63,058 bases of DNA, filler included, from Bonamia ostreae (GCA_040357525.1; 55 parts of 55 records of this genome joined end to end with filler, not necessarily neighbours in it), one strand, 5' to 3'. Shown: positions 4,622 through 57,309, counted from the first letter of the whole stretch. Made by a program: numbers and translations. The notes: generated by a model not told the origin, from the letters alone.

Positions 4622-5565
4622 ATGCGCCAATCCCTCATCGTCCTCACGCAGCGCCTCGAATCCGAAATGCACCAAAACCACTCCAACGCCGTCAACTACC
4701 GCAAGCGCATCGAAGACCTCACCAGCCGCAACAACATGATGGAGTTCAACTTCAAAGGACTGCAGAAGAAGATTATGCTGCAGACGCGCAAGCGAGAAAC
4801 CAAAGACGGCGCCGCGCCCGACGGTGAAGTTCTGGAGAAGAGGAAGCGAAAGTTGGAGTCGACCAGACTTGAGCTGGACGAAGTCAGGAAGAAGTACCAG
4901 CGAGTTCTGGGCGAGAACCGACATCTGAAGATGGCCGGAGACAAGTGGAAGCACAAAGGAGGAGCGATCGAAAAGCCATCAGTGGCCACGCTGGAGAAGG
5001 AAATAGTGATTGCGAAGACGCTGATCGAGCAGATAATGGTCTTGAAGAACCACCAAAACATTTTGTGTCTCAACGATTCCAAAAACCTGTTTGTTTTTAA
5101 CAAAAAAGAGACTCGCCGCTGATCAAACCGGACATAACCAACATTTTCCAGCGGCTCAGAAAATGCTGCGGCCAACTCGAAAATAATTTGGGCGACGAGA
5201 AGACGGTGGAAATGTTTTTGAGCAGGAGCGAAGACGACTTTGCGAAGGAGACGCCCAAAGACGGCTTTGTTTTTTATTTGATCTCTCTTCAATAACAGAC
5301 GGTGAGCCAGATTTTGGACAAAAGAGTGTCTCCGGAGGGGAAGACGCAGTTCTACGTTTGCTGTCCAGTCAATCCAGTTTTAGCGCGGGAAGCGGTTTTG
5401 AGTGGAGCGGGACCATCTCCGGTGTCGATCGAAGAAGGGAGCGATCCGGGCGCGTTGTGCGAACGCGTTTGGGTGGACGAGCAGAGTTTGGTCGGTTGCG
5501 AAACTTTGATTGAAAAGTTTCGCAGCGCTCGGTCGATCGAAGGGGCTGTTGAGACGAAGGAGTAA
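4622..5565 (+). CDS. Coiled-coil protein with C-terminal chromodomain (introns 5089-5108 and 5269-5298; possibly 5' partial)
   Basis: Removing 20-nt and 30-nt GT-AG introns gives one ORF ending FTVSQILDKRVSPEGKTQFYV...RVWVDEQSLVGCETLIEKFR, the chromodomain pattern with an insertion. Confidence 0.75.
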
Positions 5566-5959
5566 ATGTTGATTGAAAAAGATTTTTTTTGTGATTTTTT
5601 TGTGATTTTTTTGCAATTTTTTGTAGTTTTTTTGCGATTTTTTTTTTGTGATTTTTTAATTTTTTGTAGTTTTNNNNNNNNNNNNNNNNNNNNNNNNNNN
5701 NNNNNNNNNNNNNNNNNTTAATTAATTAANNNNNNNNNNNNNNNNNNNNNNNNNNNNNNNNNNNNNNNNNNNNTACAAGATAGTCTTATAACAATATCGA
5801 TTCCTCGTATGACAAAGACCACGTTAAACAGTTTGAACTCATAATCAAACATCCTGGATGATAGATAATCTATGTCATCTTATAAGAAGGTAGGTCAGTC
5901 AGGTATGCAAATCATCAGACGTCTCTATAAAGTCGGCTACGTAGCGCTGAATTTCCCGG

Positions 5960-6290
5960 GAGTTAATGAACCCGGAATACCCCCTGGGGCTAACTCTACT
6001 TGTTGAAATCTGTCATTGCCACACGATACCCTTCGGACAACGTTTAAATTCTGCACTTAATGACCCCGGAACACCCCCGGGCAAAACTCAATATCTTCAA
6101 TGTGATATGTCGCACGCTACCCTTTGGACAACTTTTTAATTTTGCCCCTAATGACCTCGGAACACCCCCGGGTCGAACGCTGCTCGTCGAGACCTTCAAT
6201 TTGATATGTCACAGGATATCCTTTGGGCATTTTTTTTTATTTTGCACTTAATGACCCCGAAACACCAAAATTCAAAACGTGGTCTATACT
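5960..6290. repeat. Degenerate ~90-100 bp tandem repeat (host)
   Basis: Four copies of ttaatgacccc(g)gaacaccccc(g)gg near 5963, 6057, 6148 and 6249. Confidence 0.7.
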
Positions 6291-6927
6291 GACCCACTTT
6301 ACTACTCTGGGATTCCAGAAAATACTATGTTGTAGTTTCTCGGTCATTGATCGGACCTTGAGATCTGTCACGGAGCTTTTGCAATTTTTCGTCAGTCCCT
6401 TTCATTTTTTTCAGTTCTTCTGTTATCTCATTTGTGAGTCTCAGTGACTGGATGCACAGGTCTAAGCTTAGGAATGTATCAATTCATTAATCTAAATAGT
6501 TTGCAGATAATTTGATTCCAAATCATTTTCAATGATATGACCAAAATTATTTTGAGAACACTAACCAACATTCCTTGCGTGTTTTATTTTATTTTTTGGT
6601 TTATTGGGCGATCAGAACTGTTGTTATCGGCGACAACACATGGTTGTCAGAGGCAATTCGGGCAATCTGTAAATACATGTAATGATTGATAAGGAATTGC
6701 ATGTAGAACAGTAGACACGAAAGCTGGTGTTATACTACGACACGACCTTTGTAATTGTCTGAGTCACAAATTCCAACCACCATAAGCTAATCCAGAAAGC
6801 TTGACTCGCCGCTAATTTGTCCGGGGANNNNNNNNNNNNNNNNNNNNNNNNNNNNNNNNNNNNNNNNNNNNTTAATTAATTAANNNNNNNNNNNNNNNNN
6901 NNNNNNNNNNNNNNNNNNNNNNNNNNN

Positions 6928-7869
6928 TACAAAAACAGTGAATTTTTAAAATCAAAATTTGGCAAAATATTGTAAGATAAAATGGTTAACATTATTAGTC
7001 TTAACAAATTTCATTTTGATGGAAATGTCATCGTCGACGTTTTCGATCGAAAAGTTTTTAAGAAAAATTTGAATATTCTAAAAATTAGAAAATTTAACCA
7101 AAATGACCAAATCTTCGTTGCTTCCCCCAGATTCAAATATCTTATCTTGCCAATAATAGCCAAAAGGCGATTTTTCCTCTGAAACTAAAATTATGTTTTT
7201 GTCTTTATTATAGCGACTGTATCCAAAATAAACGCTCGAGTTCCAATTTCTAAGTTTTTCGCCATTTTTTGATATTACTATTTTTCATGCAAAATTTACT
7301 TTTATTGTTGATTTAAAGTTTAAATTAAAATTGTTAAAATTATAATTTTTAAATTTGCATTTATCTTTAAAATTGGTTATTTGATGTAAACCAGAAAGAT
7401 CGACGCCAAAGTCAAATCTAAACTGCGCATTTTGAGATTTTATTTTGAATGAATCGATGAATCCATTTAATTCGAAAAACCGGTTATTCAAATTTACAGA
7501 AAATTTCTTTTTAAAATTTTGTTAATTTAATTCGCAAATTTCAAGTTTTGTCAAATTTACCTTATTCCAAACAGCCATCGCGCCATTTTTGTCTATTTTA
7601 ATTTGATCCAAATTTTCAGTAGAACGCCTCAGAGATCGTTCGAAGGAGCTGAGAATGAGACTGATTATGAAAATAACATAAGAGACAAATATCAGATTTT
7701 TCATGCTTGCAGCACTCAAAATCTCAAGACGGATTATAGGATATTTCTTCAAATTCCGCCCGACCTGTTTTTCTTCGGGGAAATTGAATGAATGAAAAAA
7801 TTGAGCTGTGTGAGAGGCGTACGACTTGGCCGTGTTTATCCATCTAAAGTTTTCGTCTTCTTCCGACAT
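6928..7869 (-). CDS. Multi-exon hypothetical membrane protein, 3' partial (microbe); weak TMEM181/Wntless-like N-terminus
   Basis: ORF 7869-7522 has IRLEILS followed by a hydrophobic segment (LIFVSYVIFIISLIL), then a GT donor and further open exons. Confidence 0.4.
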
Positions 7870-10800
7870 TAGTTTACAAAAACAAATAAGCCTTATTTTT
7901 TAACTATTAGCAATATAATAAAAGTTTTCAGAGATAGCTTAAATTTTACTGCTTTTGTTGCGTAATTGCTTTTTGTTAAATNNNNNNNNNNNNNNNNNNN
8001 NNNNNNNNNNNNNNNNNNNNNNNNNTTAATTAATTAANNNNNNNNNNNNNNNNNNNNNNNNNNNNNNNNNNNNNNNNNNNNTATTTACGTCATCAGATAC
8101 GGTTGCATCCGGCTATTCCGGCCCATTGCATATTCCATCCCCCAAAAAACTTAATACATAGAAAATCATGCATGAAAATTCCAAATATATTTAACAATAT
8201 GGGCCTAGCATTGTTCGTAAATAAAATTTATCAACATAAACATCATTACAGCAGATCTAATTAACAAACAATCAAACAGCTAACGATACAGAAATAAGTA
8301 GATAAGTAGTTCAAAAATGAAGAAAAAAAATAGAAATAAAAGAATAATTTAGAAAGTGGTGTACATTTCAGTGTTTCAATTATATCTTTCATCGAAACTT
8401 CAATCGAATCGGGTAACATTAAAATATCTATAATATTCAAAAAATATATTTCAATTATTGATTAAAACAGAGAATACAACAGTGACACTCGTTATGGCAG
8501 TAAATGTTGTTATTTAAAGAAATATCCAACAATATCCTATAAAATATCGCTAAACGTCATTAAAGTAAGAACCGAACTAATTATTAGATCAACATGTCCT
8601 ACTTAATTTTACCTTGATCGTCGGTAGAAAGAAGAAAGTGTCAGATAATGCATATAAGTCCATCTGTGTAAGAAATTAACAAAACCTATGTAGAGAAAGA
8701 TATGTGACACTGTTGAAATAAGCAAATATTAATGGTGGATGCTAAACCACAGATATATTGTACAATTAATCAAATCACATTGTGTTAATTTGTCCTTTAT
8801 GCTTGTATGTTTTGTTTTGTTTTAGTTTTTTGCTTCTTCTTTTTTTACATTTACAAAGTGGAAGGGATTAAAACCATTTGACTCGCTTTTTTTATTCAAC
8901 CGACATGTTAATTTATTATGAAGTTTCCTTCTTAATTAACATCATTCCGGTCTGGGCTTCACAAAACTATCTGAAGATCTGTCCTAAGATAGATCGTAAG
9001 AGTGGCTTAATATTTTACTTACAAAAATCCTAAGACACAACAGTACGGTTTCACAGAGGTATCTTAACTTCAAGATCTAATGATTTTGTTATACTCGTTA
9101 GATTGTAAAATATTGTTTATCATTTTTTTTAACTGNNNNNNNNNNNNNNNNNNNNNNNNNNNNNNNNNNNNNNNNNNNNTTAATTAATTAANNNNNNNNN
9201 NNNNNNNNNNNNNNNNNNNNNNNNNNNNNNNNNNNTGAATTGTTGTTACTGGACTTTGAACAGTCGTTATAACGATCTAAATAACCAATGCAACATTGTC
9301 ATATGACCACCTTCCTGTAATAACAATAATAATAATGATGATAAAAACCTTTAAAACCGATATGATACAATGACAATTAAACCATGTTGTAATTGTATCC
9401 ATTAACTGCGTCTTCGTCACCACATTCACAAGTTGATGGACGTTCTAACAGTCTGAAATCCACATACGCTATTAATGGATACGCCTGCTCATCCGTATAA
9501 CTGCATAATCCAGCACTCATAATCTACTTCAGTGTCAATCACGGCTATTCCTTCTGTACACCAGTGACAACCGTCGGGATCCTCGTCATTGTCAATGTCG
9601 TAGGCAATCATCCGGAATCTCTACCCTACCTGCTACACTCCCACACAGGTCAATAAAACATACACAAGCACAATATGATAATGATCCTAACATCGAATCA
9701 TGAAATAATTATCAGTAGAGTTTTTTCTTATCACTCAACAGAATATACACACTTTATATAAAACTATGTAGTGTTATAAAAGCAAAACCGTTTGTATGTC
9801 TATACACTGTACAAACACCAAGTAGAAACACTAAGTAAATTTCCGTGCGTATTACGTATTTTTAGCTATGGGTAAGTGCTAACTGGTCCGTTAATTTATA
9901 TAAAATGACAGTACAACAGTGGGCAAAATGAAATTATTTGAACAAAGTGAATGACAATAATTGTAAACTTAACCCGTCTGGAGATTTGCTGACCATATGA
10001 CTAAGATGTCTTCACCAAATAGCGTACATGTACGTGATTCTGATATTGTTTAAGAAAACAATTGCATGCTGCTATGGTAAAATGGAAGAATTGGGTTGAT
10101 ATAAGGCCTTTTACATTGGGTAGAACGACCCAGGTATAGTTTATCATGTTGACCAATACAAGAACTGAGATCATGTGGGTTTACACGGGGTCTTCATAAA
10201 ACGAAACATTGAGGAAAAGTAAAGGATATTTATAAAACAAACTTGAATGTGACAAACCTGTCACTCGTCGAATGCTGTCTGATATGGTTNNNNNNNNNNN
10301 NNNNNNNNNNNNNNNNNNNNNNNNNNNNNNNNNTTAATTAATTAANNNNNNNNNNNNNNNNNNNNNNNNNNNNNNNNNNNNNNNNNNNNTTTCTTTTTTC
10401 CGCTAGTATATGAAATAAGATTTGAGAAGTTGCAGAACAGATGTCTTAAAGTTAACCATGGATGTATTCTAATCAATCTGTAACTGATGTCTTACTACGT
10501 GACTAAGGAAACTGCCTAAATTAGTGTGATTTTCCCGCGCTAGTTGCTTAAGTCACAAAAAAGAACGAATCCAAAGACGTTTTTAGTTGACGCTTTATAT
10601 CAAACGTGAACTGGGCAACACTTTGCAACATGGTCCAACAGATGAGCGGTCCCTCCCCACAATTGTATACAACTGCATTGTCATAAAGTCTGACTTTGGT
10701 AGAGCTTGGACTCACGTCTCTCGTTAGTTTACCATTAGACATTAATCTAAAAGAAATTGTACAATCATTTTTTTCAGGCAGTGTAATCGATTTTCAGGCA

Positions 10801-11339
10801 CACAGCAAGAGATGGGGTAGGGATCTATCCCTTCTCCCCTCTCTCTTCCCCACTTTGATGGACAATATACTTTACCCGTCCTTTTTTCTATTTTTGCATG
10901 TATATACTTTTATGTATTAAATTCAAAGTTTGATTTACCGGCTGGTAACTTCCATCCCAATAGTAATTTGGGGTAACTTTGCAATGAAGTCTACCATCAA
11001 CAAATCATACGTCATGTGCTCGTATCAGTATGCAAATGGATATCACCTAAGCGTTATACAGGTAAATTGAACACAAACTACACCGCATAGACTTATAGAT
11101 TTGCAATGATTGCGAACATTCATTCAAGCACAAAAACCATTTAAATACCAGACACCAGAAACCAAGTCGTCTTTATTCATTGTCAAAAAGCAAATTAAAA
11201 TAAGGGTAATCTAAATCACTACATCGTGCATAAAAAGGAAGGCGGACCAAACAAGAAAAATTGTCCAGTAAACGTAAAACAAAACATTCAAACCAGCCAC
11301 TGAAAAATGACGCTCAGCTGCAGAGGACTGTGAGGGGTG

Positions 11340-11442
11340 GGTACAGACATATTGAGGTGACCACATACCTCGAGAGGTGGGCATAGACCTAGAGGGATGG
11401 ACACGAACCTGTTGAGATGGACACAGACCTAGAGAGATGGAC
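11340..11442. repeat. ~20-bp tandem repeat at contig end
   Basis: Repeated ggacacagacctagagagat-like units. Confidence 0.75.
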
Positions 11443-13117: not shown

Positions 13118-13692
13118 ATGCTGTTATTTATAGTTTGCATCTCGACAATATGGTCCATTGACGCTCCTGGTTTGAAACTTAATCTGTGTAGCCGCTTTCC
13201 CCGGACCATGCAGCGTTCCTCCTCACGGCAACGGATTCAAAACGGTTCTTTTTGAATCCGGGAAAGGAGCACTCGTCACCTGTGACGAGAACCAAGGCAG
13301 TTACATAAAAACGCCCGGGCCAGACGACAATTCGTACGGCAAAAAACATTTCGCCAGTTATGTCTGCAAATACGATTCCTGGTTCGACGTGGATTCGGAA
13401 TACTCGAGCAAACGGTTGATGTGCATGCAGGGATGCCCTCATTTACCGCGCAGCGACTTCTTGCACGCTTTTTCGGAAGAAGGCGATTGCACTCTTTTGA
13501 ACGAAAAAGACTCAACTGCGCCTCCTTCGTACGAGACTTGTATCTTTAAGTGCATGCCGGGTTACTTTTCGAACGCGAAAGCAAAAAACCACATGAGTTC
13601 GTCTAAAATGTATTGCAAGGAACTGTACGGAAAGCCTTATTGGCCAATAAAAGACGGTTATGATTTGGAGCCATTTGTGCATTGCACTGAAG
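13118..13692 (+). CDS. Secreted Cys-rich protein with two CCP/sushi-like modules (intron 13170-13191; 3' partial)
   Basis: Signal-peptide-like MLLFIVCISTIWS, a 22-nt intron, then CSVPPHGNG..G...C...C...W...C and CPHLP...CIFKCMPGY...C...W...C; phase-1 GT donor at 13693. Confidence 0.7.
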
Positions 13693-14125: not shown

Positions 14126-14157
14126 TTTCTCAATCGATAAAATTGCTCAACAAAAAA

Positions 14158-22609: not shown

Positions 22610-22610
22610 A

Positions 22611-22960: not shown

Positions 22961-23426
22961 NNNNNNNNNNNNNNNNNNNNNNNNNNNNNNNNNNNNNNNN
23001 NNNNTTAATTAATTAANNNNNNNNNNNNNNNNNNNNNNNNNNNNNNNNNNNNNNNNNNNNAAAATTTGATTTATATTCGCAGATTATAAAGCGTAACTGT
23101 ATCAAGTTAAATTATATCGTAAAACATCTGTCAAAATTACCTTCATTCCTTAAGTAAATTGATAAAGTTCTACGCTATTACAGCCTTTTTGAATTCTTAT
23201 AATGACAATCTTCAGATTACTTTGATTTTGTATTATATCAATGGATCAGGTATACAAAAAAAAAAAAACTGAGGCTACTAGTATATCAATAAGTATTTTA
23301 GTTATCCTCATTTGTGTGTACATGAACAATGTATATTTTCCATTCATTCTTTTATGAGAGTTGCACTCTTAAACAACCATTCCTTGCGCATGGTATAATG
23401 TAATACAATATTTTTTATTTTCACAG

Positions 23427-23899
23427 ATATTTTCATGAGAGATGTACCCAGACGCAATGGTTCCACTTCCATGGTGGCCTTTTACACATACATGGACTAC
23501 AATCAAAAAGAGATAGGGACGCACCATGTTTTCGTATTTGACCGTGTTGTTTTAAACTATGGAAATGGATATCATGAATATTCGGGCGTATTTTCAGCGC
23601 CAAGATCCGGACTATATATGTCTGTATGGTCACTACGAGTATGGGAGCAATCCGTTGTGTTGATCGTTGCTGGTTCCACCTACACTTCGATGTATAACAG
23701 AAGTTATCGTGAAGACTATACCCATGATGGAGAGTACAGTGATGCGGACGAAACCGCGTCATCGTTTGCGTTGGTGCATCTTAATGAAGGAGACGATGTT
23801 TATTTAAGAACCCACTCTTCATACAGTGGTACAGGCGGTGTGATAAGCAACGAATACGGAAGGTCATCATTTGGAGGATGGCTTTTGATGCACGTGTAA
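23427..23899 (+). CDS. C1q-domain-containing protein, terminal exon (host)
   Basis: VAFYTYM..VFVFDRVVLNYGNGY...SGVFSAPRSGLY...LVHLNEGDDVYLR...RSSFGGWLL*; pyrimidine-rich acceptor tttcacag at 23426. Confidence 0.92.
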
Positions 23900-25714: not shown

Positions 25715-26409
25715 TTAACTCTGATAAGAGAAGTTGTCTAAGTGATTGTTTTTCAGCGACATATCCGACACAAACGAATCAGCGACCGGTTCCATCGTGA
25801 ACTCGGCGTCAAAATTGGACGTGTCGGTTGTTTGTTTGCGGGTGGCGGGGACATAAGGCGGCCTCAGCTTCTTCTTCAACATCATCTCCCAATTGACGTC
25901 CTTGAAAAATTCGTGCGACATTATTTCTTCTGCGTCGCTGGGCCCGGAGCCGAGCCTGTTTTTGGGGTCTTTCTCGACCAAACGGCTTATCAGATCCTTC
26001 GCTACTTTCGAGAGGAACTTGGGATATTTGACCTCCGCGCTTTGGATCATCTTGTACATCTCGTTGGTGTCTTTGTTGTAGAAAGGAGGGTACCCGACCA
26101 TCGTCTCGTAAACGAGAATGCCGAGGCTCCACCAGTCGACCGATTTTGTGTAATTTTGGCGTTCGATTATTTCGGGGGCTTTTGTTGTCAGAAAAAAACC
26201 AAGATATTCGGGAGTGCCGCAGAAGGTGCTGGCTTCGTTGTCTTCGATTTGGTCGAAAATCTTGGAAAGACCAAAATCGGTGAGGCAAATGTAGCCGTGT
26301 TCGTCCAGTAAGATGTTTTCCGGTTTCAGGTCTCGATAGAATACCCCGTTTTTGTGGAGATGGCCAAGTGCCAAAAGTGTTTGGGCGATAATGAATTCTT
26401 TACAGATTT
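25715..26409 (-). CDS. AGC-family Ser/Thr kinase (PKB/SGK/S6K-like), 5' partial; intron 26179-26199
   Basis: YRDLKPEN, DFG, TFCGTPEYL^APE after removing a 21-nt intron, DWWSLG, and an AGC tail with NFD.EFT and hydrophobic motif LDNFSY. Confidence 0.95.
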
Positions 26410-26788
26410 NNNNNNNNNNNNNNNNNNNNNNNNNNNNNNNNNNNNNNNNNNNNTTAATTAATTAANNNNNNNNNNNNNNNNNNNNNNNNNNNNNNNNNNN
26501 NNNNNNNNNAATATATCTTATCTAGAAATGGTTAAAATGCTAATGAAAACGTTTCGTTTTCCATTCAAATCAAAAACTTATACTGTTACATATTTTTATG
26601 TATCTTAAACATTAAAATTTATTTAGTCTTTTCACCCTTTATACTTATTCTCGAAACTCCGTAATATCTACAATTAACAATGACAAATAAAACACAAATG
26701 ATGTTATTCGCATTAAAAATAAAAGAAACGATTTTTAAAATACAAAACAACAAAATCAAAATAATTCAAAAATACAAATGAATAGATA

Positions 26789-27558
26789 TTAAAATACTTT
26801 AATGTACTCGTTGATCCAACAATATCTAGAAAAGAGCACGTAAAGTTTCCTGTACCAACTAAACTGGCTGTTATGAATTCTCATCGACAGAGCGCAGTCT
26901 TTTACGCCATTAAATACAAAAAAATCACTAAACTTTATAAAATAACGTAAAATTGTCTTCATCGAAATTCCAAAGTTTGCTCAAAATAGTAAAAGGAAAT
27001 TCAATGAAGAAAATGTATTTTTGCAGTGAATTTACGGTTTTTAACTTGAAAAGCGAGACCTTGTTTTCTACAAAAAAGTCACTTTTGCTACATATATTGT
27101 CGCAAAGCAAAACCTTATAGCTTTAAAGATATCAATATGGTTGGGATGATTGGAAACGCCATTTTCGTCAAAAGTTATAACCTTAAAAATTAGTAAATTT
27201 ACATTTTTAATGCCATTTTTAGTAATATAGTCTTCTACTGTTTTTCTGATTTTCGAGTGCGGCCATTTTTCTTTTAAACCGTCCACAAAATAGTTGGTTT
27301 CGCTTATTTTTAGTTTTGAAATTCCCAAAAATTCGGCTGATGAAACCAGCTCGTTCGTTCTAACACCATCCTTCCCGCCTTTTGATAGACAAAGCAGGTG
27401 AATTTTTAGTTTGGGGTTGAGCGATTTTATCGTCGGAAGAAAAAACATTGTCTTTTATGTTGCGAAAAACCTCGTCGTCTGGATGAGCAGTGACCAATAA
27501 AATATTTGTTTTCATTTCGGTTGTGGCGAATTGTATGTTGATTGTTAAATAAGTGACG
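26789..27558 (-). CDS. PIGL: N-acetylglucosaminyl-phosphatidylinositol de-N-acetylase (PIG-L/GPI12), 5' partial; introns 27452-27470, 27182-27202, 27088-27113 and 26928-26946
   Basis: Spliced product has AHPDDE^TMFF, VITFDENGVSNHPNH, LKTVNSLQKY and SMRIHNSQFSWYRKLYVLFSRY. Confidence 0.92.
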
Positions 27559-33398: not shown

Positions 33399-34425
33399 CG
33401 GAGGGAGCTGGCTCGACGATCTGCACATGATCGACGTGGCAGACTCGAAAAAGCCGTGTGACCGAGCGAAGCCACTCGTTTGGCAGCGCCCCGAAGCCAA
33501 AGGGACCGCGCCCTGCGCGCGGGCAGCGGCGACGGCCGTTTCGATGGACAACATGATTTTCTATTTTGGAGGCAACAACGGAGTCAAGTTCTTCAACGAT
33601 GTCCACGTGCTCGACGTCGGTGCGTAAATTTTAGACTTTTAGAGAAAATGGAATGGCGGTGCGTCAGAACTAAAGGGACGGCGCCGTCTCCGAGAGCAGG
33701 CCACACCGCGACGCTAATGCAGAACGACAGAATGGTCGTCTTCGGAGGCGGCGTGGCCGACGGTTATTCGAACGACATTTTCGTTCTGAATTTAGGTTTG
33801 ATAGCTAATCGACGCAGAGACGGCGACATGGACGAAACCGAAAATAATCGGCACTGCGCCGTGCCCGAGAGCCGGGCATACCGCAATGCCGATTTTAAAC
33901 AGGACGGCAATGCTGGTTTTCGGAGGGGGGTTTAGCCAGAAGGTCTACGGCGATTTGCACCTTTTCGACATCGAAATGGGGAAATGGACGAGACCTTCGG
34001 ACGCGGGATATTTGCCACAAGCGCGAGCTGGCCACTCGTGCGTGACAATGTCCAACATAGCTTATTTTTTCGGAGGGGCGGACGGGGACAGCCATGTTTT
34101 CAACGACGTGTATTCGCTGGACACCGCATTTCTTCTGTTGAAGAATTTGGCGCCGTCGTCGGTCGGGTTCGAGTTGTATGAAAACAAATTTGTTGATTTA
34201 AATTTGGTGGAGAAACTGGAATCGAAGATCAGTAGTTTGGCTCTAAAAACCAGAAAATCGCATAACAACGCAATCCAGAATTTGAAGGAGTTATTGAGAA
34301 TAGAAGAGAACAGTAGAAAGAAGAACGAGAAAAAATTTAGGGAGCTTAAAGCTGATTTGGCCGTTTTGAGGAAGAATTTTTTAGAGTCTGAGAAACCGGC
34401 GAAAGATAGAAGGAATAAATTTTAA
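33399..34425 (+). CDS. Kelch-repeat protein with C-terminal coiled coil, 5' partial; introns 33620-33642 and 33796-33817
   Basis: Repeated G.AP.PRAGH...FGG...NDV..LD units restored in frame by 23-nt and 22-nt introns. Confidence 0.92.
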
Positions 34426-34974: not shown

Positions 34975-36044
34975 CTTCGAACATAAGTCAATTATTTTGA
35001 CTAATATAACACCGTTTCAAAATTTATCCATATGTAACACTTATCTTTACATAAAAATGTTTTAAGCAGACACAGATCGAGAACACAATCATTAACAATA
35101 CGTACAAATCTGATTGATTAATTCTTTCAAATGATCAATACTTCGCACTGTAGTATATCTAAGATATTTCCTTTTTCACAGTATAATGTGGTTTTCTTCA
35201 TGGGGTTGATGCATGGGCCGTTTCCTAGTTGTAGAGAGGGAATCATTTGGGTCGTCTAAATCCGTTCAATCAAATAGAAACACTATAACAGGTATTGTAT
35301 TCTTTCCTCGCAAGTTATCGAAATAAAGGTCGTCACGTAATCAAAATTATAGTGATGTGTACCTTTTCGTAACTTATGATAAATTTATGTACTTTGTACA
35401 AATGTATGACCTAAGGACGAAATATTTGGTGTTAAAGAATAGAATCAACTAAAATATTTTCAAACTGTAGAGAAATTGTTAGTAGTCAGTTACAATATTA
35501 CTCACAGTATGATGACAAGATTTGACCTATTCGTGTTTATAGACACAAATGTATGTTTTTAAAAAAAAACGGCGCATGTGACCGGTCAACAGNNNNNNNN
35601 NNNNNNNNNNNNNNNNNNNNNNNNNNNNNNNNNNNNTTAATTAATTAANNNNNNNNNNNNNNNNNNNNNNNNNNNNNNNNNNNNNNNNNNNNTGATGGGC
35701 GTATACAAATTCCTAGCAAAGGCTAAAGGGATTACCAAAGACGCAATGCTAAAAGCAAGACACTTCTTATTGCTGTCTAAATTTGACATGTCCGCAGTTG
35801 ACATTATAAACTCAACAATAATTTCATTCCGACATTGCAACCATGCTTTGGGAGTAAAATTTACAAGCATTTCTGTATTCTTGAATTCATTTTGGATGTT
35901 TAGCACTACCTGATACACGTTCAATTCACTGATTTTACTGTTTGTTTCAATATGCTTTACGATTTCCTCGGAAATGGGCAAGGGCATTATTCTGCCCCGT
36001 ATTAATTATTTTTCACAAATGAGTCTTTGCAGTGNNNNNNNNNN

Positions 36045-38193: not shown

Positions 38194-38980
38194 CTAATGC
38201 TCTATTATTGGAACGGGACGCATTTGATCGGATGCGCTTTTTTAGACCTGCAATTTTTCTCGACAAGAATAGTTTCGCTCAGAAACTATCTGCTTGTCGG
38301 AGACGCTTACCGATGCATTTACTTGTTACTTTGGGAGCCCCAAACAAGGCAACTTTTGATGATGAGCAGAGATGCTTCAAAGCAAAATGTCACCTCCGCC
38401 GAATTTCTGATCAACAAATCGAGCATCGCTTTCTTTACTTCAGACGGCGATCGCAATTTAAAGATTTTGAACTACGACCCGAAAAGTTTCTAAACGACAT
38501 TTCAAAATGTAAATTGTTTAAAAGACCCGAAAAATCGCGGAGGAAAAAGTTTGGAACAAATAGCGCACTTCCGCTCTGGTCACTTTATCACGAAAAGTGT
38601 TATGTTGAAAGCCAAAAAATCGGAAAAGAAATTTTTTGTGCTCTCCGGTAACATTTTAAAACGATAAAGGTTCCGTCGATGGATCGTTTGTGGTGACAGT
38701 GCCACTCGAAGAAAAGATATTTCGTCGTCTTAAATCTCTGGGAACTATAATGACATATTACTTGGAACACAATGGTGGAACGAATCCTCGAATGTTTAGA
38801 AAATCGGTTCATGACGGCCATTCCAATTACCAAAATTTTTTTATCGATGGCGATTTGGTGGATAAATATCGCCATTTAGACATGTACCGTCAAATCGAAC
38901 TCGCTAGAAAAGTCAAAAGCAGTCGAAAAGAAATTTTGGAGAAATTGAGATTTATTGGTGAATTGACGAGATTTTCATGA
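38194..38980 (+). CDS. CPSF1: Cleavage and polyadenylation specificity factor subunit 1 (CPSF160) C-terminus; introns 38486-38524 and 38648-38669
   Basis: LIGCAFLD..LRNYLLVGDAYRCIYLL..SRD..SAEFLI..SDGDRNL..YDP; GSVDGS; GTNPRMFR; IDGDLV. Confidence 0.92.
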
Positions 38981-40279
38981 TTAAATTTTAATTGATCGAT
39001 TCTTTGATAAAGATTTTGCAAATCTTTTATANNNNNNNNNNNNNNNNNNNNNNNNNNNNNNNNNNNNNNNNNNNNTTAATTAATTAANNNNNNNNNNNNN
39101 NNNNNNNNNNNNNNNNNNNNNNNNNNNNNNNGGATCATAAGTCTTCAGGCATGCCTTTACTTAACATGTTCCATGGTACCAATGACACGGTTATCACTGA
39201 ATGTAAATAAACTATTCATTTTGTAAAGATAAGAAGATATTAAAGGACACGAGTAGAAATAACAATAACGTTTTATGTATCTAGAACAACTAAAATTCGT
39301 CGGAAGTTGAATTTAACACTCTCGTTTAAAGTAAACAACATTTTGCACTATTTACTGTCGTCAAATCTAATTCCCATACACAACCTATTATTTGGGTGGA
39401 ATGTCGTCAGACGTTTTTCATACACATTATTAGACCACTCTTTACATACTGCTTTCAATTAAGGTTTGCAATTATTCTCTGGTCGAGAAATAAGGCTTAC
39501 AGCAGATGTAACCTGCCAANNNNNNNNNNTCCTGCCTTCAAATCCGCCTCGCACTTCTACTCTCGGCGACAAAGAAGGCTCACATCAGCTGGACCCTGCC
39601 CCTAGAGCGTGCTTACGACTCCTAAGGACCCGATCCCCCATCTGGTATGCCCAGGACTTGTGTTTGTCCTATATTCAATTTTGATGTTTTAGAGGATTCA
39701 TGAGATTGATGGCTGTTCGTTATTTTCAATTTTTATCATGTCAGGTTATTTTTCAGTATTCTACATTGTGGAATAGATCAACTATTGACAGAAGTGACAG
39801 AGATTGTTACATTTATATTTCTTTGAAACATTTAGAATGACCACTTAAAATTATCAACAATATGTGTAGGTTATTTCCACTAATTTTGAGAACACAGATA
39901 CTCATAATATGGTAGCTTAATTAGGTCAGGTATGATTCATAGCGAATTGTACAATTCCTTAACATGACTCTCATTCACGGTTAGCATTCGCTGTTACTAA
40001 TGCAAGTGTTTAATGTTTTCAATGTTTTGATAAAGCAATAAAATTGTACTACAAGTTGATGGGTTTTCCGAAATCAGTTATTTTTCAGTGCTAAGCGGAT
40101 TGTCGTGATTGTTTAGAAATGATTGAAGGTATATATCTTTTCAGATAGGATACATAATAATAATAATAATAATAATANNNNNNNNNNNNNNNNNNNNNNN
40201 NNNNNNNNNNNNNNNNNNNNNTTAATTAATTAANNNNNNNNNNNNNNNNNNNNNNNNNNNNNNNNNNNNNNNNNNNNAA

Positions 40280-40465: not shown

Positions 40466-41323
40466 TCAACGATGCATCGTCTTTTGCCACGGGATTTCAA
40501 CTCTGTATCCCGTCGGAAGATGCTCATCCCATTCTCTCTTGACCTCCATCCCGTTTTCCGGAAATCGGAACACGCCATTTCCCTTCGGCCAACCGCGCGA
40601 AAACAGCCCTTCGTAACAAGCGCCGTCACCAAAGACATATTTTCCTTTTCCTTCGGCCAAGTTGTTGGCCCATTCGCCTTCATATCGAGATTCGTTCGAA
40701 AAAGTGTACACGCCGTAGCCGTTTCGGCAATCGTCCCGCCATTCTCCGTCATAAGACGAGTCTTTTATGACGAGGACGCCTTTCCCGCTTTTCCGCCCTG
40801 ATTTCCAATCGCCTTTGTATTCCCATCCTTCTTTGTCGACGTAGACGCCATATCCTTCTTTCCGGCCGTCCTCGAAATCGCCTTTGTAGCTTTCTCCGTC
40901 CGGTCCTTTGTATTCCCCTTTTCCGTGTTCCAGGCCGTTCTTTGTTGTCAAAATTTTGTGTTGGGATATGTTGCAACAATGAAAGATGGAACTAAAATTT
41001 TGGGTCGGAACGAGCTATTTGCAACAATGACTTTGAGCAATAAAAACGGCCCAATCGCCAACATAGAGATTGCCTTCCCAGTCGGAAAATTTTCCGAACC
41101 CGTTTTTGTCGCCGTCGCGCCACTCTCCGTCGTAGAGAGAGCCGTCTTGGTGAGAGAGAATGCCGTTTCCGTGGCGTTTGTCATTTTTCCAGGCGCCTTC
41201 GTAGCGTTCGTTTTCTCTTTTTTCTTTACCGAAACCAGATTTTTCGCCTTTTTCGAAGGAGCCGATGTATTTGTATTCTTTCGTTCTTTTGTTGCAAAGC
41301 AATTTGGGAAATTTTCAAAAAAT
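40466..41323 (-). CDS. MORN-repeat protein, 5' partial; intron 40940-41047
   Basis: Many Y.G.W..D.R.G.G repeats; YVGDWA^NGLEHGKG is restored by a 108-nt intron. Confidence 0.92.
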
Positions 41324-44300
41324 NNNNNNNNNNNNNNNNNNNNNNNNNNNNNNNNNNNNNNNNNNNNTTAATTAATTAANNNNNNNNNNNNNNNNNNNNN
41401 NNNNNNNNNNNNNNNNNNNNNNNCTTACTTCAGCGACATGTATCTGATGTCTTTAATTCTATACACCAATTGATTGATTTACCAGAATACCATACTCATG
41501 TCAGAGAAGAGGCCTACATGAGTAAAAGAAAGGACATCGACAAACACTTAGACTCCAGAAATAATGATTTAATGAAGAAAGACTGCGCAATTGTATTCGC
41601 AGGTAATTTCAGATCACTGTGTAGCAGCTATATGTATTAATCATAGTTTGCAACAACAAAAATGTATCTCTTTATGAAGTCCTAATATGTTTTGTAAAAT
41701 ATAACAACACTATGACTGAAGACACTAAATAATTCGACTGAGTTATTCTCTCTAAGCATCAAGATAGATGGGACAGCGGATTTTGACGACATTTTACACG
41801 AATTATGCATACTTCAGTATTTTGATTATGACACCTTTGAAATGTGAGTTGACGTGTGTTTCTATTACAACAAGAAATCCGATTTTGTGCAAAGATTTGA
41901 TCCTCAGTAAATGTTAAAATTTCAAAATGAGTATATTAATTTTTCATTCAATTTCCTGTTCCTGTTTTACTAAGATATGTTGTGTGTAATTTTTTAAAGA
42001 TAAAATGCATTTGCTGGAACTTCTGAATACGAATTACATGTCCTTAAATACCAAAATATCTACTGAAAATTAGATTTTTTTTTTCATTTTGTGCAGAAAA
42101 ACAAACACTGGAGTAGTGCTCCTATATGATTAAATGTATAGTATATCTACTGGAATAACATTTTTAAAAAATAGAGATGTCTCATTTCATTTAAGAAAAT
42201 AAATTATAAGTTGATGCTACTACGAAAATTATGCGAGTTTTCCCGAAAACACGATCACATCAACTCTTGACTGCAATTCGTACTCCAAGTATATTCATGA
42301 TTAAGTCAAGTGTCGTCCCTTCTGTAAAGTGAAAGAAGAAATTTATGAAGGATGTCTTGGATACTTTAAGCTTGTTTAACTATTTAAATCAACTAATCTT
42401 TTTCATTTCATATTCAAATGTTCATCGGAGATCAGTATGTATTTGATGGCTAGTTTTCAATGATGGCGTNNNNNNNNNNNNNNNNNNNNNNNNNNNNNNN
42501 NNNNNNNNNNNNNTTAATTAATTAANNNNNNNNNNNNNNNNNNNNNNNNNNNNNNNNNNNNNNNNNNNNTAAAATATTTATTTTTCGTTAGTTGCAATGT
42601 TGTATTCTGAAGTGGTGCATATCAAAATTTCATTTCTTTGAAAGAAATAGATGTCCAAAGCTTACAGAGTATACATGTATCAACAATGAATAAAAGTACT
42701 TTTCACTTTCGGTTTCAAATACACAGTATGAAGTAAAAAACTGTACTCCATTATTCAAGTAACCAATATCTACTTTGTTTGCGTTGTGATAATGTAGCAT
42801 TAGAAGCTTGTAATAAGTGTAAGGGTTTGAAAATCTGCCCTTTATCTTCTCTTTTGATATTTCAAGCATTCGATCTTGTTTTAAAAACAAACACAGTTTG
42901 GGTTACCTCCCTGGTTACTTCACAAGATACACTATATTGCATAATGCATGTAATGATGCTAAACTTTAGCGATCTTAAATCCTGGCAATAGCCTAGAGAG
43001 AAAAAATGGACGAACTCAATTGCGAGAAGAAAAAAGGGAAATAATACAAAGACTTAAAAGGAAAAATACTATTTACTTTTTATGACGGACTCATTAACAT
43101 ACATGTGTATGAACATGTGTATGAGTGTTGTGTACGCTACCAAATACAAAAGCAATCAGATCAATATTTTATTAGCATTTGATTCTCCTGGAATCTATAA
43201 GATTACTGTATAAGAAAAATGAGGTCTAGAATACGAACTATATGTGATGCTTTTTTGCTTTACCTTTACCCTCTGATTTCTTAATATGGTCATTGTTTGC
43301 AGATATTGCGAGAGACATTTGATTTAATATACAAACTGTCATAATTGGGATAAGATTAGGATAATAAATTCATGAGTAATCCTCTTTAAGAACAAGTTCG
43401 TTTTCAACGAATCAGGAAACACATCTGCTATCAGTTTTGAAGCAATCTTGGAGGAACTTTGTAATTATCTTGTATTAAAAGACTTCAACGTATGTGTTTA
43501 ACTATGGTTTTCTACAAATGTAATTTTACAACTATTTATTCTAATTCATGTACCTTATTCTTCATACATGCATACAGATATTCTACAAGGAATCAATATT
43601 TTTGTTCTTTCCAACNNNNNNNNNNNNNNNNNNNNNNNNNNNNNNNNNNNNNNNNNNNNTTAATTAATTAANNNNNNNNNNNNNNNNNNNNNNNNNNNNN
43701 NNNNNNNNNNNNNNNAGTCAGCCGTTGACTGTGAAAGTCAGCTTTTCTCGTAAAAGTCTACTATACGGTGCAAAAAGTTCCTCGTACAAATTCCAGCGAC
43801 TCTCCTATTTTGTACACTAAGGTCGCCATTTGCTGAAACCCTTTACGGTAACGACAGCAAGCAGTTACATTGTAAATGTCTTTAAAATGTACATAACGAA
43901 TGGTGGAAATAACGAAACCATTTTTTTTTTATTGTTTTCGAAATCATTTGAACCTGTGTGTTTTCAGTTTGCATTGAACTTTAATGGCATATGAGACGTT
44001 GTATCGTCATCGAAAGAGTGATGTAAAATCATGAATATGCTAAGTACATGTAAATGTTTTGTGTGGGTTTTTTTTTTTCATTTGAAANNNNNNNNNNCAT
44101 TATATAAATATTTAATTACCACGAAAACGTCAGACGTTCTATTTTTTAAGATAAAATATCTATAAAAATTATATAAGTTATTTGTTAATGTATTTTATAT
44201 ATCTACGGCTAAAATCGTTTAAGAAACATGTCAATCGGAGGAAAATATGAAGTATGCAAACATATTTCAAACGGATATTGAAATTTGCAGAAATATTGCT

Positions 44301-44937: not shown

Positions 44938-45580
44938 ATGACATTGAAAAACTACTTAAAACCAGCCAAAGTTCATCGAGAGCGAGCACAGCCAAAACAT
45001 CGAAGAAATTTTGGATTTTTAGAGAAAAAGAAAGATTACAAAAAGAGAGCGAAAAATCACAATTTCAAGAAAGACCATTTGGCGTTGTTGCAGCGGAAAG
45101 CGGAAAACAGGAATCCAGACGAATTCTATTTTTCGATGGTGAAAAGCACTTTCAGCAAAAGCGGTCACATTAGAAACAAAAAATTATTGGAACCGAAAGA
45201 GGTTTTGGCGATGGTCGAAGAGGATATAAAATATTTGGAGTTCCATCTCAATATCGAAAACAATGTTTAAAATTTGCTTTTTTATTTCAAAATTTTCTTT
45301 TCCGATAAAAATTCAAATTCAGAAAATCGAAAAACTGCAAAACGAAAATGCCGTTTTCAGATTTGACGATTCTCCAAATAATAAAGTCGATCAAAGCGAA
45401 AACAAAAAGTCTTTTTTGCAACAGAAAATGGAAAAAAGGAACAAAATCCAAAAATTGCTCAAAAAATTAAAACTGAAGCGCTGTGCAATGGTTTTCAACC
45501 ACAAAATTTAGCTTCCGGGAAGAAAACAGAAAGTCGGAGACGGCAAAAGATTTTGCTTTGACAAAATTAGAAATAAATAA
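44938..45580 (+). CDS. UTP11: U3 snoRNP-associated protein Utp11; introns 45265-45322 and 45491-45511
   Basis: HRERAQP..R..FGFLEKKKDY..RA...KAENRNPDEFYFSM; spliced C-terminus ...RFCFDKIRNK*. Confidence 0.92.
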
Positions 45581-45591
45581 ATTTTGATTTT

Positions 45592-53022: not shown

Positions 53023-53535
53023 TTAAATGGCGAACAAAAAAATTGGATTGGACAGAATAAAAACACTGAAGGCAACTGCTCCTTCGGGCAAAACAGGGCC
53101 ATCCGCGAGCGGGTCCGGCTTAAAGCCAAGTCCCATCGTCGGATCCCGCCCTTCTTTTTCTTCGCCGGGCGCGAAAGCGCGCTCGATCTCAAATTTCTCG
53201 AGGGCTTGCGCCTCAACGAGAAAATGTCTGTTCGAGACGCCTTTGATCGCGTTTTCTCTCATTATCTTTTCGCGCTTCCGAAGAGCGCGTTTTTCCAGTT
53301 CAACGGCATCGACTGGATCGTTGTCGTTTGCCGCTCTGTTGTACCAATAGACATCTCTGTCTTTCTGCCAGCGGCCATACGGCGCCCGGACAGTGCTTCC
53401 CAGATAATAGGACCTTTCTCTCGTGGCTTTGACGTCTTGCCACGAGAACTGGTCTGTTCCGCCGCGGACGCCGGGGCGAACATCGTACGGCATTCCTGGG
53501 AGACCTTCCTGTGGTTTTTTGGAAGGATAGACCAT
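53023..53535 (-). CDS. MMTAG2: MMTAG2/C1orf35-family protein (3' end probably interrupted by an intron)
   Basis: RPGVRGGTDQFSWQDVK...YLGSTVRAPYGRWQKDRDVYWY matches the conserved N-terminal block. Confidence 0.85.
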   Translation of the reverse strand: MVYPSKKPQEGLPGMPYDVRPGVRGGTDQFSWQDVKATRERSYYLGSTVRAPYGRWQKDRDVYWYNRAANDNDPVDAVELEKRALRKREKIMRENAIKGVSNRHFLVEAQALEKFEIERAFAPGEEKEGRDPTMGLGFKPDPLADGPVLPEGAVAFSVFILSNPIFLFAI

Positions 53536-53594
53536 TTTAATATAGTTCGATAATGTTCGAGCTTAAATATATTTTTTTATTGTGTAAACGATAT
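53536..53594. promoter_or_regulatory. 59-bp bidirectional intergenic/promoter region
   Basis: Divergent ATGs at 53535 (-) and 53595 (+). Confidence 0.5.
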
Positions 53595-53906
53595 ATGGTA
53601 GAAAAGACGATAAGCTTTAAAAATTATGTGCCATCGAAGGAGAGTCTAAGAGAGGACGAAAATGGAAGCAAAGCGAAGACGGTTTTGAGTACAGAAACGG
53701 TTGAAATTCCGCAAAAAAATAAAATCGAAAACTTTGAGGATTTGTTCAGAACTGCGGAAGAAGAATCGGAAAACATAAGAATTGTTCCGAAAAAAGCGAA
53801 TTGGGATTTGAAAGAAGAACTTTTGGAACAATTTGAAGAATTGGAAAATAGATCTAATTTGATTCTCGAGGAACTTAGAGGTTTCGACATAATAGTCTGT
53901 TTGTAA
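53595..53906 (+). CDS. CCDC12: Cwf18/CCDC12 splicing factor (last codons probably intronic)
   Basis: ISFKNYVP.KE.L and IVPKKANWDLK...LENRS motifs. Confidence 0.8.
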   Translation: MVEKTISFKNYVPSKESLREDENGSKAKTVLSTETVEIPQKNKIENFEDLFRTAEEESENIRIVPKKANWDLKEELLEQFEELENRSNLILEELRGFDIIVCL

Positions 53907-54267
53907 TTTTCAATNNNNNNNNNNNNNNNNNNNNNNNNNNNNNNNNNNNNNNNNNNNNTTAATTAATTAANNNNNNNNNNNNNNNNNNNNNNNNNNNNNN
54001 NNNNNNNNNNNNNNTTTACGGGATTTTTTCGGATTTTTATTTTATTTTTTGTAAATTTTACAGATTTTTTTCGGATTTTTATTTTCGGATTTTCATTTTA
54101 TTTGTAAAAATTTTTCGTATTTTCATTTATTCGTAAAAATAAAAATATTTTATTCGGATTTTCATTTTGTTAATTTTTCGTAAATAATTTTTTCTAAAAT
54201 TTCTAAAAATTGTAAATTTCAAAATTTCGCAAAAATCGAAAAAACAATTAGGAAAAAACAAACAGAA

Positions 54268-55058
54268 ATGCTGGAACATTTGAAAACGAACGGACGTTTG
54301 TCCACTAAACGCCTCGAAAGTCTCAAAACAGTCAACGAAGATTACAACAAATCGTTCATTCTGATTTCTTCGTTTTGTATTTACAAAAATAACAAGAATG
54401 GCAGAATCGCTGGGATCGTCAATGGACATGAGCGAATTCGCGCTCAAATCTGCCGAAACTTGCGATGAAATTTTAATGCAATTGTGGAAAGAAATTACTG
54501 GCGACGTCAAAGAAAACCTCTTCGAAGACGAAGAAACGAGAGCTTTTTACGAAGATTTTGCCAATCTGGAAATGTACGTCAAAAGAATCGACAAAAAAGA
54601 AACGGAGAAAAGCGAAGAGAAAATGGCGGAAGAAAAGTTAAAATTGGAAGCGCTGAGAAAACATTTGGGCATTTACGACCAAACTGAAGAACCTCCGAAA
54701 GAAAAGCTTAGCGGAATTTCTTTGTTATTGAGCGATCTTGGAAATGGTCTTTAACGATTAGAAACTTTAAAATAAAAGTAATTAGAAAATGGAAAGCTAA
54801 AATTTAATAAAAGCGAACAACAAGGCGAAGATAGATTCAATAGCGGAGAGATTTTGCGCGTTAAATAATTTGGACGCGCAAATTCAATTGATGGGAAAAA
54901 TTTTAAAAGTGAGAAAAGACAAATTGGGACAGATTTTGTTTTATTGCAGATTGATTGCGACGCTTTCCAAGTTTTTCAAAGATTTTGAGAAGCGAATTGT
55001 CGAAGTTCTCGAAAAGCAATTTTACGGAATGTTCTTTGCAAAAGATAAAGTTTTTTCG
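54268..55058 (+). CDS. UPF2: Nonsense-mediated decay factor UPF2, internal fragment; introns 54372-54396 and 54747-54813
   Basis: LFEDEETRAFYEDF..L matches the UPF2 EDE..R.FYE motif; MIF4G-2 IDSIAERFCALN...FYCRLIATL. Confidence 0.85.
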
Positions 55059-55789
55059 NNNNNNNNNNNNNNNNNNNNNNNNNNNNNNNNNNNNNNNNNN
55101 NNTTAATTAATTAANNNNNNNNNNNNNNNNNNNNNNNNNNNNNNNNNNNNNNNNNNNNGTGTGTCGAGAGGCCAATGTTTTCTCTACTCATGTTGTATTC
55201 TTTATGGTAATTATGCTACTCGTTATTTTCAGTTTTTCATACAAGAACAACTTTTCTAGCATAAGACGGCGAAATTTCCGATTTGAAAAAACAAAAGAAA
55301 ATAACAATGTCTACAGTATTTATTTATTAATTAACCTTTCATGATAATCCGCCTTCCAATTTATCGTACTTCAATTTTACTCCGGAAACCACGCACGTCC
55401 TTGTATCAGGTCCCGTGTATCATTTGTGCATTGACAACAAACATCCTTAGCGACAGTACTTTCATTAAAGAGAAAGAGTTTTTAAAAGTTGTAATGGTGT
55501 TCTACCCCAAAGTTGTAATGGCGTTCTACCCCTCCCCCATAATTTTGCAAAATATCTAAACGGCAACATCTGCTCACTTGAGTGGCGACTCTATAATGTG
55601 ATCATTGCTTTTTACTTGTATATAAGGATAATTATTTAGTTTTTGCATGTGTGTATTTAAAGAAACGCTGACTTTTGTTATCAAGGTAAAAGTTTAAATC
55701 AGCATATATTCAAATTATCCATGCATATTTGATGTCCCTCTTATTGATAGTGGAGGTTCCATTTGAAAAATTTGAATTGAATTAATGTG

Positions 55790-56030
55790 AACCTTATTGT
55801 CTGTTTTCGTAGGGTAAAACTTTATCAAATGAGACATCGGCAATTATTGGTTTTTGGTATGGATGATGTCCATGGTTACATTTCCGCCTTTGTGTATTGC
55901 CAAAAAGGATCAGCAAACCAACGCTATTTTTATGTGTACTAATCAGATTTCCCATACATATGTTGTAGTTGCATCCATATGGAAATGCAGTGTCTAGTGC
56001 CTTGATCCAGCAATCTCGTTTTCTACTAAA
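55790..56030 (-). mobile_element. Decayed Penelope-like element (region following the GIY-YIG domain) (host)
   Basis: RKRDCWIKALDTAFPYGCNYNI..GNL resembles the WI..L.T..PYG.N tail of PLE endonucleases. Confidence 0.55.
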
Positions 56031-56301
56031 CAATAGTACGTCAAACTGAACTGTCAACGTGATGATTAATCTTCTCTAGAATTCTGACAGTCATGGAATG
56101 GTTTTGGCAAGTGAAATGTTTATAAAGAGGATGATACCTTCAATAAATTAATTTAGACGCTACTATACACAAAGCATAATTGTGCTTGTCGTAAGAGGCG
56201 ANNNNNNNNNNNNNNNNNNNNNNNNNNNNNNNNNNNNNNNNNNNNTTAATTAATTAANNNNNNNNNNNNNNNNNNNNNNNNNNNNNNNNNNNNNNNNNNN
56301 N

Positions 56302-57309
56302 AATCCGAAGAATAGAAAAGCTGTTAAAGATGGTGATAATGTTTAACAACAAAATAACATAATAGATTAAAAACGATCATACCGCAGCAAATTTCTCTTC
56401 CGGAAGACAAAACGACTTTATCTTTTTCGACCTTTCGGACGAACGTCTCATAATGGATCTTTTGTGATGTTTTTAAACTTTGATGTTTCTTTTGTTTATT
56501 TCTTTTATCGTGTGTTCCTTCAGATGTTCCTTGAACATTGGCAAAATCGTTTTAGCCGCTTCGATCTTAATTATTACAATATCGTAAAATAAAAAATGCA
56601 ACTCCAAAAAATTTTTTGACAAAATTGTTAAAACAATGTGGATATTGAGGTACTTTTCGAACCCGGGGAAAAGTCTGTGCGCATCTCGCTTTACAAAATC
56701 ATATAATTCCGCAGCGAACTCGATGTTCGCTGGGCCTGCGCCGACAATGACGATCGTCAGCAATTTTCTTTTCGTGTCGTCGTCAAGGTTCGGAATGCCT
56801 TTTGTGACGAAAATAACATGCCATTTCAAAAATTTCGCTCAAGCGATTTCTTATTCTGCGCGCGTCGGACAGTTGTTTAAGGAAATAACTGTTTTCTTTG
56901 GCTCCGTCGATATTGAACGTGTTCGCTTCCGCGCCGCAAGCGATGACCAAATCGTCAAACTTTACGGATATTTTGGTGTCGGGGACGTTTTTGTTGGCGC
57001 ATTCGATCGTCCGCGAATCCGCGTCTACAGACTTGCAGGAAGCTTGTATATATTTGATGTTTTTAATGCGCCGCGCGGATTCGATTATATTTCGGAACTC
57101 CAAAGTGCCCACTGTAGTCGTAGACAACAAAGGAGTGAACAGAAAATGGTTCCTCGGTGAGACCATCGTCACTTCGCAAATCTTCTTGTTTAGTCTTCTG
57201 GCCAAACTGTAACTAAAAATGAGGTCTAAAACCCGGCCCATCCGCTGCCTAAAATGACCACCTTGCGGCGACCGGAAGGTAATCCAGATGAAAATAGGGC
57301 ATCAAACAT
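56302..57309 (-). CDS. Type II (alternative) NADH:quinone oxidoreductase, 3' partial; introns 57213-57232, 56799-56817, 56566-56634 and 56459-56478
   Basis: KVVILGSGWAG^YSL, VSPRNHFLFTPLLSTTTVGTLEFRNIIE, FDDLVIACGAEANTFNIDG, FLKQLSDARRIR and IVIVGAGPANIEFAAEL. Confidence 0.95.

Follow-up and report, generated by a model that had tools for sequence, protein, structure and literature searches.

Very short introns were found throughout a 63,058-nt window of the genome of the oyster parasite Bonamia ostreae (GCA_040357525.1), the window being the whole stretch of DNA that was analysed. The 15 segments of 19-26 nt proposed as spliceosomal micro-introns in an initial annotation of this DNA were all recovered at their coordinates with GT..AG borders on the coding strand, as were three further segments added here, and each of the 15 removals joins open frames. 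With high confidence, the segments are U2-type GT-AG spliceosomal introns of B. ostreae nuclear genes, shrunk to near the minimum workable size and mostly 19-26 nt long. This reading builds on what was shown at individual sites, where the segment is missing from an RNA-type contig, is skipped by gene models trained on transcripts, or restores a conserved protein when excised. Independent support (RNA-type contig, NCBI model, homologs, profile or repeat register) was obtained for 12 of the 15 segments, and the supported introns measure 19, 19, 19, 20, 20, 21, 21, 21, 22, 22, 23 and 26 nt, in addition to two longer ones of 39 and 58 nt.

The window consists of 55 pieces with lengths falling from 1055 to 1042 nt, which are unlinked B. 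ostreae draft contigs, joined by 54 identical spacers (1056-1155, 2211-2310, and so on to 61917-62016), each composed of 44 N, a 12-nt linker with stops in all frames and another 44 N. The 15 claimed introns are spread over nine independent contigs, and the span 5089-57232 does not represent a single locus; the micro-introns had been described as pervasive, and their presence on nine unlinked contigs bears this out beyond the grounds originally given. Since the pieces are unlinked, neither gene order nor truncation can be safely read from the window. The NDH2, kinase, UPF2-like and CPSF1 genes look cut off because the contig ends there, and they are not truncated in the organism; contig ends likewise account for the absence of the NDH2 C-terminus (searched for and not found), of the N-lobe of the kinase and of what lies upstream in UPF2 and CPSF1.

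The PIG-L gene (26792-27545 (-), piece 24) contained four tiny introns in ~0.77 kb. For 27452-27470 (-; 19 nt, phase 0), exactly these 19 nt were missing from a 280-nt contig of sequencing run X1 (depth 4089), and no contig covered them; all five PIG-L homologs placed this intron, and its splicing joins the AHPDDE motif to TMFF. The next segment, 27182-27202 (-; 21 nt, phase 0, stop-free), was also placed by all five homologs and, together with 27088-27113 (-; 26 nt, phase 2), is skipped by the NCBI B. ostreae model P0122 / MES1922464.1, whose 157 amino acids all map on the window (157/157). At the last segment, 26928-26946 (-; 19 nt, phase 2), X1 contigs stop at 26927 and restart at 26947, corresponding to both borders, and the same segment was retained in a 78-nt X1 contig (depth 1824), so that it is partly retained. 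At the start of the same piece, the first 35 bases (26510-26544) showed a word depth of ~106,000 in X1, with many contigs running into unlike sequence, and look like a high-copy repeat at a contig end. A second gene of this pathway was detected on piece 52, where two open reading frames (ORFs) in different frames matched the Pfam profile of Gpi1 / PIG-Q (58749-59376 (+); profile positions 139-208 and 202-261) and could be joined by a GT..AG segment of 28, 58 or 88 nt. PIG-L and Gpi1 / PIG-Q show that genes for the synthesis of glycosylphosphatidylinositol (GPI) anchors are present in the window.

The NDH2 fragment (piece 50) harbored three introns and one longer candidate in 0.94 kb. The three segments 57213-57232 (-; 20 nt, phase 2), 56799-56817 (-; 19 nt, phase 1) and 56459-56478 (-; 20 nt, phase 0) were given by all three NDH2 homologs (64%, 53% and 50-51% identical to the query exon) with gapless flanks. 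The first of them splits the codon run of the GxGxxG motif, and its splicing joins VVILGSGWA-G-YSLAR. The longer segment, 56566-56634 (-; 69 nt, phase 0, in frame and stop-free), was absent from all three homologs and had a GC content of 0.19 compared to 0.44 around it, a level of AT-richness reached by only 0.9% of the windows of the same length in the piece. It is probably an intron as well, but it could alternatively be an insertion of 23 amino acids.

Four other genes provided evidence of different kinds. In an AGC-type protein kinase fragment (piece 23), the Pfam Pkinase profile was matched at positions 102-164 in 26201-26407 and at positions 166-263 in 25718-26176, on either side of 26179-26199 (-; 21 nt, phase 1), and the codon split by this segment completes the motif GTPEYL-A-PE. 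The Kelch-repeat gene (piece 30) possessed two introns. At 33620-33642 (+; 23 nt, phase 1), the match to the Kelch profile breaks off and restarts at the exon borders, and splicing yields VLDVEKMEW, in the register of the uninterrupted repeat LFDIEMGKW. At 33796-33817 (+; 22 nt, phase 1), splicing yields VLNLETATW and restores the repeat register; an alternative of equal length and the same frame, 33783-33804, yields FLIDAETATW, and 22 nt are removed either way.

For the C-terminal fragment of CPSF1 (piece 34), the NCBI model P0121 / MES1922467.1 skips both 38486-38524 (+; 39 nt, phase 1), which was added here, and 38648-38669 (+; 22 nt, phase 1). All 240 amino acids of this model (1-240) could be placed on the window, the printed alignment showing no mismatch, and the true join at 38648-38669 links 38525-38647 to 38670-38977, not to the largest upstream ORF. 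Two public isoforms were available for UTP11 (piece 40). Variant 2 (P0328 / MES1922470.1; 187 of 187 residues identical) skips 45265-45322 (+; 58 nt, phase 0), a second added intron that is also skipped by four of the five UTP11 homologs, as well as 45491-45511 (+; 21 nt, phase 0). Variant 1 (P0272 / MES1922469.1) is identical after removal of 45265-45322 alone; it reads into 45491-45511 and stops at the in-frame TAG with which this alternatively retained segment ends. Retention replaces the last 22 residues by 6, which is the sole difference between the isoforms.

In the coding sequence that was verified, introns numbered ~3 per kb, and the high density described initially for PIG-L and NDH2 was found again, with four in ~0.77 kb and three to four in 0.94 kb, respectively. 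The size range of 19-26 nt was retained as the main class, but it is not the whole range, as introns of 39, 58 and likely 69 nt also occur. The standard genetic code, with TAA and TGA as stops, agreed with the 11 ORF ends examined (nine TAA and two TGA). The hint at an ascetosporean origin was also right, as three NCBI proteins named for Bonamia ostreae, a member of the Haplosporida (Ascetosporea), match the translated window with 100% identity after intron removal.

At the level of the class, composition clearly distinguished the 15 segments from other sequence. Their GC content was lower than that of their flanks (60 + 60 nt) in 14 of 15 cases, with a mean difference of -0.156, whereas control GT..AG or CT..AC segments of 19-26 nt from the same nine pieces had a GC content below that of their flanks in 117 of 295 cases (40%; binomial p = 2e-5; rank test p = 5e-8). 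When protein-to-DNA alignments were run with all 256 possible pairs of border dinucleotides, with a plain frameshift allowed as the alternative, GT..AG ranked first for PIG-L and CPSF1 and third for NDH2. The claimed segment was the sole GT..AG solution within 40 nt in five of the 15 cases, including 26179-26199, 26928-26946 and 56799-56817. The others were the shortest or most conservative GT..AG option, except for 33796-33817, with its equal-length alternative, and for 57213-57232, where a shorter option of 17 nt exists but gives a non-homologous product. Border ranking, composition and the site-by-site evidence are decisive for the class.

Several results weigh against this reading. GT..AG segments were not enriched at places where they bridge two open frames: among all 256 dinucleotide pairs, GT..AG gave 54 loci, where the average pair gave 52.3 and the highest count was 90, and the more specific pattern GTWW..WAG gave 58, 30 and 5 loci at thresholds of 30, 40 and 60 codons, compared to 62-115, 29-54 and 4-14 for five control patterns, which included reversed and complemented ones. 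As no enrichment over control patterns was detected, frame restoration by itself proves nothing. A weight matrix of intron ends built from the 12 verified introns placed only three of the 12 in the top 5% of 3772 GT..AG segments in a leave-one-out procedure. In PIG-L, 27088-27113 was given exactly by none of the five homolog alignments, the surrounding stretch being variable and poorly conserved, while 26928-26946 was given exactly by one of five, three others showing a frame change nearby (another intron or a frameshift) and one ending earlier. The evidence from sequencing runs consists of contigs, not reads, the RNA label of X1 is a guess, and one of the nine intron-bearing pieces was covered; within that piece, none of the runs covered 27035-27209, X3 matched only 26510-26544, and X2 and X4 matched nothing, which does not count as evidence of absence. 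What speaks for 5089-5108, 13170-13191 and 54372-54396 is their frame, composition and context, and the branch point, the make-up of the spliceosome and the aligner-threshold cause discussed below are things that we infer.

The intron sequence beyond GT and AG is poorly conserved. The weight matrix was dropped as an intron detector, being weak in the leave-one-out procedure. A codon-usage gene finder allowing introns was dropped as well, as PIG-L escaped it, antisense strands received scores and the introns that it picked were odd.

Two explanations that would apply to the whole class were also weighed. The segments could be assembly artefacts, either spurious insertions or indels, in frames that are really continuous, and the draft is indeed very fragmented, with pieces of ~1.05 kb here and an N50 of 1417 nt reported for the published assembly (12.24 Mb, 33.3% GC; PMC11069148). 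However, assembly errors would not be expected to carry GT..AG borders in 15 of 15 cases, to be AT-rich in 14 of 15 and to fall within 19-26 nt; retained and removed forms coexist in one run (X1), and three segments are multiples of 3, so that they cause no frame shift. This explanation is accordingly very improbable. Removal at the DNA level, in the manner of the internal eliminated sequences of ciliates, or bypassing during translation seems even less credible. The RNA label of X1, as a guess, leaves some room for the former, and small ciliate eliminated sequences overlap these sizes; nevertheless, the organism is a rhizarian and not a ciliate, and the borders are GT..AG, not TA..TA. Moreover, 27452-27470 is lacking at the level of the nucleic acid, an effect that bypassing would not have, and the public models that skip such segments were trained on transcript reads (PMC11069148).

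The three remaining segments, 5089-5108 (+; 20 nt, phase 2, piece 5), 13170-13191 (+; 22 nt, phase 1, piece 12) and 54372-54396 (+; 25 nt, phase 2, piece 48), are probable introns. All three were far richer in AT than their flanks, like the verified introns (GC content of 0.20 vs 0.44, 0.32 vs 0.47 and 0.20 vs 0.44, respectively), and among the 3772 GT..AG segments the weight matrix ranked 5089-5108 in the top 0.08%, 13170-13191 in the top 2% and 54372-54396 in the top 12%. The first joins 173 open codons (155 without N) to 61 others. The second joins a Met and a hydrophobic leader of 17 codons to a Cys-rich ORF of 173 codons without an early Met, to which it supplies the only Met and a signal-peptide-like leader. 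The third joins 62 to 118 open codons in a UPF2-like fragment, in which a later exon (54801-55058) matches UPF2 in PDB entry 4cek_A (E = 0.018).

A minority of the claimed segments, at most these three, might instead be chance GT..AG segments lying where open frames happen to overlap, a possibility that we consider rather unlikely. It is favored by the lack of enrichment in the bridging of frames of at least 40 codons (30 loci vs 29-54 for the five control patterns) and by flanking exons without a Pfam, PDB or Atlas anchor. Concerning 54372-54396, the downstream exon begins with a Met, so that the gene could start there, and the matrix rank is modest. Searched against PDB, the exons on either side of this segment returned chance-level matches only, neither strand of pieces 4 and 5 gave a Pfam family, the host ORF of 5089-5108 included, and ESM Atlas searches with one ORF from each of these two pieces gave generic coiled-coil look-alikes for the host ORF of 5089-5108 and no usable match for the second ORF. 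This host ORF is lineage-specific and coiled-coil-like. Chance is opposed by the strong AT-richness of the three segments, by the matrix ranks of 5089-5108 and 13170-13191, by the nature of the leader joined at 13170-13191, and by the fact that the other 12 of the 15 segments from the same initial annotation were borne out. The UPF2-like gene also displayed a further frame change at 54747-54813 (+), between ORFs 54365-54754 and 54801-55106, where the codon-usage finder, a weak tool, was alone in proposing a GT..AG segment of 67 nt.

Regarding the mechanism, recognition of such introns would take place across the intron, by a spliceosome that is probably reduced. Words resembling TNAY were read by eye 6-9 nt before the AG in many of the introns, and a putative branch A could lie at this word, ~6-9 nt upstream of the 3' AG. 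Splicing may be incomplete for some introns, as 26928-26946 and 45491-45511 also occur in retained form, and retention would truncate the protein. Among spliceosome genes, only the splicing-factor gene cwf18 (53541-53903 (+), piece 47) was seen in the window. No small nuclear RNA was matched within these 63 kb, and Rfam and tRNA scans of the window gave no match.

According to the initial annotation, default gene finders will miss these introns. This claim held for both 19-nt introns of PIG-L but not for the four examined introns of 21-26 nt, which are modelled; overall, public models skip 27182-27202, 27088-27113, 38486-38524, 38648-38669, 45265-45322 and 45491-45511, the last in UTP11 variant 2. 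The public PIG-L model (157 amino acids) begins at the Met located just after 27452-27470, so that the AHPDDE exon is missing, and ends inside the retained 26928-26946, so that the conserved C-terminal exon (SQF.W.RKL..FSRY) is missing; it is truncated because the two 19-nt introns are unmodelled. With the NDH2 sequence as query against protein candidates of 231-2000 amino acids, no B. ostreae protein was recovered, and the best match, P0001 from a haplosporidian relative, was 64% identical. Common RNA-seq aligners have a default minimum intron length of ~20-21 nt, at or below which the 19-20 nt class falls, and this limit is a plausible cause of the absence of the 19-nt introns from an annotation that does include those of 21-26 nt. 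The public B. ostreae models are described as trained on transcript reads (PMC11069148).

Other features were also observed in the window. A C1q ORF (23399-23896 (+), piece 21) matched the full Pfam C1q profile (positions 1-127 of 127; E = 1.7e-15). C1q genes are very numerous in bivalves, and this ORF could belong to a host contig, the assembly being derived from infected oysters, or represent a host-like gene of the parasite. Six MORN repeats (E = 5e-30) were found in ORF 40469-41014 (-) on piece 36 (46% GC), whose opposite strand is also open; as long ORFs are open on both strands of this piece, open frames are poor evidence of coding in GC-rich pieces. The FATC end of a PIKK kinase (302-784 (-), piece 1) and the proteasome lid subunit PSMD3 / Rpn3 (57635-58540 (+), piece 51) were also identified. 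Runs of 10 N occur inside pieces 32, 35 and 39 (36035-36044, 39520-39529 and 44088-44097, respectively); these are probably gaps left by scaffolding in the original assembly. A 24-nt unit is present twice (95% match) at 55485-55532, in a piece (49) without a recognizable gene.

Extended to the group, these results suggest a hypothesis that we put forward tentatively, at somewhat less than even odds: haplosporidians may have dense micro-introns of variable length, with a floor near 19 nt, intermediate toward the 16-17 nt of mikrocytids, and, since the 19-20 nt class lies below the usual limits of aligners and gene finders, a sizeable share of the public B. ostreae proteome may be truncated or missing. 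If so, the published figure of ~2 introns per mRNA and some of the inferred gene losses would be underestimates or artefacts. Introns this close to the physical minimum for the spliceosome are, to our knowledge, present in very few lineages. A second ascetosporean order with another size class would lead one to ask whether miniaturization predates the split between haplosporidians and mikrocytids, and what sets the floor. The oyster disease caused by B. ostreae is notifiable, and studies of metabolism, targets and diagnostics draw on the gene catalogue of this parasite; lowering the minimum intron length in a new annotation would alter conclusions on gene content.

Among known systems, Paramecium has introns of roughly 20-30 nt and reads TAA and TAG as glutamine, while Stentor uses the standard genetic code. 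Unlike in Paramecium, TAA (nine cases) and TGA (two cases) close ORFs in B. ostreae, and TAG closes the retained-intron isoform of UTP11. More than 90,000 introns are attributed to Paramecium, and introns of 15-16 nt to the heterotrich ciliates, including Stentor coeruleus (both cited in PMC10245619). The heterotrichs belong to another supergroup and are free-living giant cells with a near-fixed intron length, compared to 19-26 nt in B. ostreae. The nucleomorph of the chlorarachniophyte Bigelowiella natans has more than 800 introns of 18-21 nt in ~300 genes (cited in PMC10245619). The likeness with chlorarachniophyte nucleomorphs lies in the narrow tiny size class and the high density; however, the nucleomorph is a relic algal nucleus, whereas the B. 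ostreae introns are located in the parasite's own nucleus (NDH2, PIG-L, UPF2-like and kinase genes), and their size range is wider and shifted upward.

Closer comparisons come from the Ascetosporea themselves, against which the novelty of the introns was to be judged. The B. ostreae genome paper reports 5253 genes, a mean CDS length of 658 bp and "canonical introns" with a mean of 2 per mRNA; its main text does not contain the phrase "intron length" (0 occurrences), although its supplements may hold such figures (PMC11069148). Elsewhere, Ascetosporea are described in general terms as having introns drastically reduced in number and size (PMC13746701, 2026), and no statement on intron length in Bonamia or haplosporidians was found in the literature searched. 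The size class was thus not found stated for Bonamia, but the kind of intron is known, and that of mikrocytids, the sister order, is even shorter: the B. ostreae micro-introns are of a known kind and already present, without comment, in public gene models. In the mikrocytids Mikrocytos mackini and Paramikrocytos canceri, 217 of 224 introns are reported to measure 16 nt and the other seven 17 nt; these 224 introns, in 179 genes, have a highly conserved sequence and are absent from metabolic genes, and partial splicing efficiency is reported for them (PMC10245619). Three differences separate the two systems. The B. ostreae introns are longer, at 19-26 nt for the main class and up to 58-69 nt in its tail; their sequence is not conserved in this way (three of 12 in the top 5% in the leave-one-out procedure); and they are dense and also found in metabolic genes (NDH2, PIG-L), whereas those of mikrocytids are few and absent there. 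Nevertheless, mikrocytids, like B. ostreae, are ascetosporean parasites of invertebrates with very short spliceosomal GT-AG introns, and the introns of B. ostreae work in the same way as the mikrocytid type.

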